The position numbers are program-made. Source: Escherichia coli (GTDB lineage Bacteria > Pseudomonadota > Gammaproteobacteria > Enterobacterales > Enterobacteriaceae). From it: DNA of 64,000 bases. Every line of letters starts with the position of its first letter. Position 1 is the stretch's first letter. The stretch is taken from the NCBI RefSeq assembly GCF_045037415.1, contig NZ_CP173438.1. The stretch is one strand, 5' to 3'. Of the stretch, positions 20,701 through 23,700 are shown piece by piece.

Positions 20701-23700
20701 TTAACAATGCCACCAGTGTTACCGGCAGGCCCATCGCAGGCAGCACAATCAGTGCGGCGAAAGTTGCACCACCACCGACACCGGCAACGCCTGCGGAACT
20801 AACGGTGACAATACCGACCAGCGTCGCAATCCACATCGGGTCCAGCGGGTTAATGCCCACCGTAGGCGCAACCATCACCGCCAGCATTGCCGGATACAAA
20901 CCGGCACAACCGTTCTGACCAATGGTCGCACCGAAAGAGGCGGCGAAACTGGCGATGGATTCAGGAACACCCAGACGACGCGTTTGTGCTTCCACATTCA
21001 GTGGGATAGACGCAGCACTGGAACGGCTGGTAAAGGCAAACGTCAGTACTGGCCATACCTTACGGAAGTACTTCAGCGGGCTCACGCCATTAATGCCCAG
21101 CAGAAGGCCATGCACTGCAAACATAATCAGCAGACCGAGGTAGGACGCGACAACGAAACTTCCCAGTTTGATGATGTCTTGCAGGTTAGAACCTGCAACC
21201 ACTTTGGTCATCAGCGCCAGAACACCGTAAGGGGTCAACTGCATGACCAGGCGAACCAGTTTCATCACCCAGCTTTGCAGGGTATCGATAGCGGTTAAGA
21301 CGCGTTCACCTTTCGGCGCATCATCCTTCAGCAGTTTCAGCGCAGCTACGCCGAGGAATGCGGCAAAAATTACCACGCTGATAATTGACGTCGGATTGGC
21401 TCCGGTCAGATCGGCAAACGGGTTTTTCGGGATAAAGGACAAGACCAGCTGCGGAACGCTCAGGTCAGAGACTTTACCAACATAGTTACTTTCGATGGCG
21501 TTCAGACGTGCAGTTTCTGCACCACCCTGAACCAGACCTTCAGCCGTCAAACCAAACAGGTTGGTGACCAGCACACCAACCAGCGCTGCAATCAGCGTGG
21601 TAAACAAAAGCGTACCGATGGTCAGAAAACTGATTTTGCCTAACTGAGATGCGTTATGCAGACGGGCAACCGCGCTCAGAATAGAGGCGAAGACTAGCGG
21701 CATAACGATCATTTGCAGCAGTTGAACATAGCCGTTACCAACAATGTTAAACCACTGTACAGAATCTTTAAGTACCTGGCTGTCAGAACCATAAATGGTA
21801 TGCAGGGCAAGGCCAAAAACCACACCCATCACAAGACCCACCAGCACTTTTTTCGCCAGACTCCACTGTTTGTGGCGGGTTTGAGCCAGCGCAAACAGCA
21901 GTACAACGAACACCACGATGTTCGCAATTAATGGAAAGTTCATCCCCGTTCTCCTGATCTTATTATTTCTATCACTGCGTAGCAGTCATAGTGTTGGCGC
22001 AAGATTAACAGAACTGTGAGCTGGCTCTTATATTCAAATGGAATTGCTTATTCCAGAAAGGCGATTTTTGCCTTTTTAGTATTCAACCTGATGCTTAATA
22101 AGCCGATGAAACTGGATCTGTAAGGTATTGATCATTTGCGATGACCAACGAACAGCGCTGTTTTCGGGTAATGAATGGGGCATCCATACCGACCAGACAA
22201 ATAATGCCATGCAGATAAAACGTTCCAGTTGGTTGCCCTTTTGGGGAACCAGGATAGGCAAGCGGAAACGCCAGCGGCATGGCCAGAGCAGGGGAACACC
22301 GGCGGGTGTCAGCATATCGGCAAGTATGTGGCTCAAATAACCCAGCACCATACCCTGCAACGCATCAGCCGGAATGAACCAGCTTTCAGGAACCTTAAGG
22401 TAAAAGGTTGCCAGCAGCGCAAATACCGCCAGCAGGCTGTGGGTAAAACCACGATGCCCAAAAGCGCGGGCGATCGGTTTTGATATCCACTTTAATCGCT
22501 GCCCAAGAAACGACTTTGGGTGATCGATGTCCGGTAACAAACACGTCAGGATTGCGGAAGGGACAATATGCCACCAGTCCCCCTGTGCCAGCACGGGCGT
22601 CAGCTCGGCATTTTTGGCAAATACCGCACAAGCAATAGAAAAGAGAAGGTGACCTTCCGCCGTCATGATAAAACTCACTAAACTGTCGATACGTACAGTA
22701 TAGGGTTTTTATACAGTGCACGGAAGTGGTGACGGTGTAACTCTTTCTCTTAAATTGGCGATTAATCCGTCATTTGAATGCAAATTCAGATAAAGAACCA
22801 GGGGCAGTGTGATCACTGCCCCCTGGTCATTAACCGAGAAGGTCTTTTGCGGTGAGTTCTGTCAGCGATGAGAGTTTGACGTTTGCTAATACAAAACGTG
22901 GATCATTTTGCGCTTCTGGCGCAGGAACGACGATGGAACGCATGCGGGCTGCTTTAGAGGCGATCATGCCATTTACCGAATCTTCCAGTGCCACGCAGGT
23001 CAGAGGGTCAACCCCCAGTTTTGCTGCGCAGTCAAGATATACTTGCGGATGCGGCTTGCTGTAAGGCAGTTTTTCAGCCGAGGCGAGGGCATCGAAACTG
23101 TCGCGTAAATCAAACATGGTCAATACTTTTTCCAGCATATGCAGCGGTGACGCGGAGGCCAGCCCCACCAATAAACCTTGTTCTTTGCATAACGCAACGG
23201 CTTCACGCACACCTGGCAATAATGGACGTGTCTCTTCAACCAGTGAAATGGCACGGGCAATAACTTGTTCTACTACTTCCTGACGGCTTGGCCCATTCCA
23301 TGGTTGCCGGGCGTACCAAAGATCGACCACCATATCGATGCGTAAACCTAAGGTGTCCGGCAGCTCGTTACGACGGGAGATATCCACCCCCAGGCTTGCC
23401 ATCACATCCAGTTCGGCTCGATCCCATAAAGGTTCTGAGTCGATAAGTAATCCATCCATATCAAAAATTGCAGCAAGAATCTGACGCGGGGTTGACATTA
23501 CAACCTCTCCTTTAGAGCATTATATGTAAGGTATTAAGCCGTGCTTATGATTAAGCGCCTATCATATCGCCTTTAAAGAATGGGCGAAAACAGATATCTA
23601 CAGGTAAACTAAGTGAAACGACGCGTCTTAATCAAGGAGAACTCATGACGTATCAACAAGCTGGACGCATTGCTGTTTTGAAAAGGATTTTGGGTTGGGT

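Follow-up and report, generated by a model that had tools for sequence, protein, structure and literature searches.

Two overlapping LexA boxes upstream of Escherichia coli ydjM keep a fixed layout across the Enterobacteriaceae

Two overlapping LexA boxes lie just upstream of ydjM in the stretch of Escherichia coli DNA analyzed here (64 kb, referred to below as the window), and they very probably correspond to the pair of operators through which LexA, the SOS repressor, is already known to control ydjM in E. coli. The tandem arrangement is itself already known, because ydjM is named in the published list of LexA regulon (SOS) genes, tandem LexA-binding sites at E. coli ydjM were reported experimentally by Fernandez de Henestrosa 2000, according to PMC4951493, and induction by DNA damage has been published for both E. 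coli and Salmonella. The K-12 form of the second box is listed in PMC4576408. LexA binding and damage inducibility are thus taken from the literature, while the presence of the sites, their scores and their conservation come from the present analysis. Taken alone, the re-identification of a textbook-level SOS operator pair at a functionally uncharacterized gene carries little weight; what goes slightly beyond simple confirmation is the depth of conservation, the two-box layout being fixed across more than 25 enterobacterial genera, together with a possible rationale for the imperfect half of the second box and two small leads described below.

The ydjM locus and its two LexA boxes

The 1.6 kb around the sites are 100% identical to the corresponding region of many complete E. 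coli chromosomes, and the region is present in 5423 of 5426 genomes. Gene coordinates (Table 1) follow the RefSeq annotation of identical DNA, in which hxpB lies upstream of ydjM and tcyP is its downstream neighbor. The YdjM protein matches the Pfam family PF04307 YdjM (E = 7e-36) and the NCBIfam equivalog NF008651, 'metal-dependent hydrolase', and can be classified by family as a putative membrane metal-dependent hydrolase of the YdjM type. The literature consulted gives no experimentally established function for it, so that the description of ydjM as a gene of unknown function, made when the sites were first noted, still holds at the experimental level, family membership giving a putative role only.

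Both boxes are located 14-52 nt upstream of the ydjM ATG, inside a 163-nt spacer bounded on its far side by the hxpB terminator. The gene-strand sequence of this region is CACTGTATAAAAACCCTATACTGTACGTATCGACAGTT, then TAGTGAGTTTTATC, then ATG. The terminator-like hairpin that follows hxpB is strong, with 10 pairs, 7 of them G-C, and a T-run. A search of the ydjM control region for structured RNA gave only sub-threshold Rfam matches, all of them on this hairpin, and a search for terminators turned up none between ydjM and tcyP.

Table 1. Coordinates of the ydjM control region and its flanking features
Feature	Position	Strand	Description
ydjM CDS	22076..22666	minus	196 aa, ATG at 22666; LexA-regulated gene
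LexA box 1 (proximal, stronger)	22681..22700	minus	Gene strand TACTGTACGTATCGACAGTT; the palindrome CTGT-N8-ACAG at 22683..22698 is its core
Putative -10 hexamer	22697..22702	minus	TATACT; straddles the box junction, within the invariant CCTATACTG
LexA box 2 (distal, weaker)	22699..22718	minus	CACTGTATAAAAACCCTATA on the gene strand; one consensus half-site, the other CCTA
Putative weak -35 hexamer	22720..22725	minus	TTCCGT; 17 nt upstream of TATACT; 2 of 6 positions match
Invariant upstream block	22721..22746	minus	AAAGAGTTACACCGTCACCACTTCCG; matches the operators in conservation
Terminator-like hairpin	22800..22823	minus	After hxpB; upstream limit of the ydjM control region
hxpB	22830..23498	minus	Upstream of ydjM

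Box 1, which reads AACTGTCGATACGTACAGTA on the plus strand, contains CTG and CAG 10 bp apart, and its CTGT-N8-ACAG core is the only exact match in the 64 kb window. The preliminary description had placed a perfect LexA box at these positions, within 20 bp of the ydjM start, and this is confirmed. The further claim that the boxes directly abut the start is not borne out, since 14 nt separate the box 1 20-mer from the RefSeq ATG. Only an in-frame GTG at 22678, which begins the longest open reading frame, would abut box 1, and this codon is not conserved, being absent in most other genera.

The second box has one consensus half-site, CACTGTATAA, with CTGT at 22716..22713, and a non-consensus distal half, CCTA at 22704..22701. 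The CTG-N10-CAG spacing found in box 1 is missing here, as the distal half has no CAG, which leaves box 2 as no more than a half-consensus auxiliary site. Two base pairs (TA, 22699..22700) are common to both 20-mers. The imperfect second box, its intact CTGT, its CCTA half and its overlap with box 1 had all been described correctly, while its far end, previously given as 22720, lies 2 nt nearer to the gene, at 22718.

Heterology index scoring

The sites were scored with the Berg-von Hippel/Lewis heterology index (HI), using a symmetrized count matrix built from 18 published E. coli LexA boxes, a set that does not contain ydjM (table in PMC3009722). This matrix reproduces the published HIs of 17 genes with r = 0.98; it was used because an oriented, unsymmetrized matrix tracked the published values less well (r = 0.92). 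Box 1 has an HI of 10.99, rank 2 among the 63,981 positions of the window, and sites scoring 11.0 or below are expected about 0.1 times per 64 kb in first-order Markov simulations. The HI of box 2 is 13.71, rank 5 in the window, and for sites at 13.8 or below the same kind of simulation gives an expectation of 0.9 per 64 kb. In 300 simulated windows, a strong site was never accompanied by a second one at a distance of 15-25 bp. The bare CTGT-N8-ACAG core, by comparison, is not significant on its own, since it is expected 0.52 times per window and appeared at least once in 43 of 100 shuffles.

LexA scoring of both sites had been proposed at the outset, with HIs above about 15 for the pair as grounds for abandoning the assignment. 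At 11.0 and 13.7, both sites lie below that value, which is also the approximate limit for gammaproteobacterial LexA boxes, defined as 20-bp TACTG(TA)5CAGTA-like sites. For comparison, an E. coli transcriptome study gives an HI of 9.0 for ydjM, and the two Salmonella ydjM boxes are listed with HIs of 9.12 and 12.85, at 14 and 32 bp from the ATG (PMC8072944).

Within E. coli, the K-12 sequence of box 1 is identical to that of the window, and box 2 differs by a single base at 22705, C in the window and T in K-12. The K-12 allele of box 2 has an HI of 12.11, as against 13.71 for the window allele. Of approximately 5420 complete E. coli genomes, 1093 carry exactly the 71-nt allele seen in the window and 3603 carry exactly the K-12 allele. 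This common natural C/T variant in box 2 provides a small lead for promoter dissection.

Conservation across the Enterobacteriaceae

A scan with the YdjM protein, restricted to one genome per species, recovered 80 Enterobacteriaceae loci from more than 25 genera, including Escherichia, Citrobacter, Salmonella, Enterobacter, Lelliottia, Kosakonia, Raoultella, Leclercia, Atlantibacter, Franconibacter, Cedecea and Phytobacter, with 74 distinct upstream sequences. The core of box 1, as CTG[T/G]-N8-ACAG just upstream of the ATG, is present in all 80 loci; in 65 of these, 14 nt separate the 20-mer from the ATG. In 77 of the 80, the CTGTA[T/C] of box 2 precedes the box 1 CTGT at an offset of exactly 18 bp, and across the orthologous loci the two boxes nearly always stand 14 and 32 nt from the ATG. 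Comparison with other enterics, the second check that had been suggested, shows that the position and spacing of both boxes are conserved across more than 25 genera, and the conservation in orthologous promoters that characterizes LexA boxes extends to 80 of 80 loci for box 1 and 77 of 80 for the box 2 half-site.

The pattern of variation differs along the sites. Within box 1, no change is seen in CTG, in ACAG or at two of the central A/T positions, while most other central positions vary, a pattern that fits selection for LexA contacts. The E. coli version of this box (HI 11.0) is weaker than the commonest version elsewhere, TACTGTATGAATTGACAGTT, which has an HI of 7.85. In box 2, the half-site ACTGTATAAA is at least 90% conserved throughout; the CTGT half has been lost in Citrobacter amalonaticus (L013) and in Intestinirhabdus (L025), both of which keep CCTATA and box 1.

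These two lineages bear on the reading, to our minds an improbable one, that only box 1 is functional and that box 2 is promoter DNA with a chance CTGT half-site that adds nothing to repression. Since they retain CCTATA in the absence of the CTGT half, part of box 2 must be conserved for a reason other than LexA binding; moreover, just one half of box 2 matches the consensus, and 0.9 chance sites per 64 kb are expected at its HI. Against this reading stand the CTGTA[T/C] at the exact 18-bp offset in 77 of 80 species and the conservation of the half-site itself; the tandem sites are described as experimental in PMC4951493, and the Salmonella study likewise counts two boxes.

A candidate core promoter and a proposed model for repression

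Where the two boxes meet, a run of nine bases, CCTATACTG, is invariant in all 80 loci, including the lineages that lack the CTGT half of box 2. This run contains the hexamer TATACT, which we take as the candidate -10 element of ydjM, with transcription predicted to start near 22690, equivalent to about 1,810,187 in MG1655. A generic scan of 22500..22900 found no strong sigma-70 consensus promoter. In rough hexamer scoring with sigma-70 frequencies, TTCCGT-17-TATACT came out ahead of every other sigma-70-like candidate in each of the 74 distinct upstream sequences and was also the most uniformly conserved. Two other -10 candidates, TATAAA (22713..22708) and TACTGT/CACTGT (22718..22713, with GTTACA as the -35), scored lower and are not conserved as promoters. 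The supplementary tables of four studies, PMC4782308 (Cappable-seq), PMC4681348 (E. coli/Streptomyces transcription map), PMC10301672 (ROSE in vitro transcription) and PMC7132871 (Shigella M90T start sites), contain, as far as they could be covered, no ydjM start and no nearby coordinates.

With a start near 22690, box 1 would occupy approximately -10 to +10 and box 2 approximately -28 to -9, so that two LexA dimers would span about -28 to +10. In undamaged cells, one dimer would bind box 1 and a second the adjacent, weaker box 2, the latter probably helped by the former through cooperative binding. Together the two dimers would cover the core promoter, block RNA polymerase and keep ydjM transcription low. 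Upon DNA damage, RecA filaments promote the self-cleavage of LexA, the operators empty and ydjM is induced a few-fold; blockage by bound LexA and its relief by RecA-stimulated cleavage are established features of the SOS system.

This arrangement may also account for the imperfection of box 2, whose non-consensus half would be held fixed by the need for a -10 hexamer. The distal half could not be ACAG because the same positions make up CCTA-TACT, and a better LexA site would destroy the -10 element. Because this half falls on the best -10 candidate, any gain in repressor affinity at these positions would come at the expense of promoter strength.

In a different arrangement, slightly less probable still than repression through box 1 alone, the boxes would not occlude the core promoter but form a roadblock downstream of it: transcription would begin near 22754, from an upstream sigma-70 promoter, CTGAAT-17-ATTAAT (22789..22761), relative to which the boxes would occupy about +36 to +73. 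Genomic SELEX of constitutive RpoD promoters (PMC3946193) does assign CTGAAA-17-ATTAAT to the yniC(hxpB)-ydjM spacer, and elements of the SELEX type are also found in the window, as CTGAAT-17-ATTAAT at 22761..22789 on the minus strand. That assignment, however, is a sequence prediction within a broad peak and not a mapped start. Furthermore, 22761..22789 is not conserved outside Escherichia; other genera have the end of a different gene only 10-25 nt from the upstream block, yet they keep both the block and the boxes. Finally, the idea that the motifs are fortuitous and without regulatory role, to which the 0.52 expected bare cores per window might lend some color, is effectively refuted by the simulations (full-site scores and no pair in 300 windows) and by conservation in 80 of 80 species, and published damage induction also stands against it.

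Published induction ratios for ydjM are modest. In Salmonella, where two ydjM boxes are recognized, nalidixic acid induces the gene 2.1-fold (PMC8072944); an E. coli study reports 2.5- and 8.6-fold induction in two conditions, and a ciprofloxacin study gives a log2 fold change of up to about 2.6. The presence of LexA sites at ydjM, proposed in the preliminary description, is thus supported by HI, conservation and literature together, whereas the tight repression that the tandem sites had been taken to imply is not evident, because the induction ratios are modest.

An invariant block upstream of the operators

A further block of sequence, just upstream of box 2, is conserved to the same degree as the operators (Table 1). 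Across the 74 distinct sequences from more than 25 genera, its invariant parts are GTTACA (22741..22736), CGT-AC (22734..22729) and CTT-C (22726..22722). The window has a single copy of the motif, as does each of the loci, and its place is the same in all of them. Other genera carry GTGACAAAGAGTTAC where E. coli has GAGAAAGAGTTAC, and a GTGAC-N5-GTTAC direct repeat that is found in other genera is absent from E. coli. The region was compared by eye with the consensus promoters of RpoE and RpoH and with the consensus sites of CRP, CpxR, OmpR, PhoB, MarA and DnaA; none of the resemblances was convincing.

The junction sequence CCTATACT is invariant in 80 of 80 species. Promoters with a CTATACT-type -10 element and a C at -13 are favored by the stationary-phase sigma factor RpoS. 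It is possible, though we consider it rather doubtful, that the ydjM promoter carries a second, undescribed input, in which CCTATACT would serve as a -10 element of this type and an activator or the alpha subunit of RNA polymerase would bind the block AAAGAGTTACAnCGTCACCnCTTCC, which lies at about -56 to -31. If so, expression of ydjM would require a further signal together with DNA damage. Like the natural variant in box 2, the invariant block offers a small lead for promoter dissection.

Comparison with known systems

Several LexA boxes close together in one promoter are also a feature of the lexA and recN tandem operators, which, like ydjM, belong to the SOS regulon. The lexA operators comprise two full CTG-N10-CAG boxes about 1 bp apart, 21 bp from center to center. 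At ydjM, in contrast, the 20-mers overlap by 2 bp, their centers are 18 bp apart and the second site is only half-consensus. The same locus in E. coli K-12 and Salmonella Typhimurium is the closest known system, and the published Salmonella boxes have the same layout as those in the window, at 14 and 32 nt from the ATG.

The geometry of ydjM, a strong and a weak site overlapping by 2 bp, resembles that of the colicin double SOS boxes as presented in PMC4951493. Unlike ydjM, the colicin boxes are plasmid-borne and overlap more closely. In Staphylococcus aureus, a gene of the YdjM family is likewise controlled by LexA, which suggests that the link between the YdjM family and the SOS response is old or recurrent. 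The S. aureus locus differs from ydjM in its LexA motif, CGAAAATATGTTCG, in having a single box and in being part of a three-gene operon.

Other LexA-like sites and features of the window

The best LexA box in the window is CACTGGATAGATAACCAGCA, at 10630..10649 on the minus strand, with an HI of 7.0. It is the known cho/ydjQ SOS box and one of the training sites of the matrix, and it lies 13 nt upstream of cho (9729..10616, minus strand, GTG start). The window therefore carries two genes of the LexA regulon, about 12 kb apart. Two weak LexA-like 20-mers, at 8252..8271 and 44661..44680, have HIs of 13.5 and 13.6; the astE-spy spacer contains one of them, and a phage tape-measure gene contains the second. 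They are probably not functional, since about 0.9 such sites per 64 kb are expected by chance.

Elsewhere in the window, a P2-like prophage remnant lies next to ihfA, from about 37000 to 50000 and beyond. Its genes, several of them truncated, include a hok/gef toxin, an ogr-like zinc-finger protein, a GmrSD-domain endonuclease, and tail sheath, tube, tape-measure and fiber proteins. A frameshifted pseudogene of a type III effector of the ShET2/EspL2 family is located between yniD and thrS, at 27883..28907 on the minus strand.
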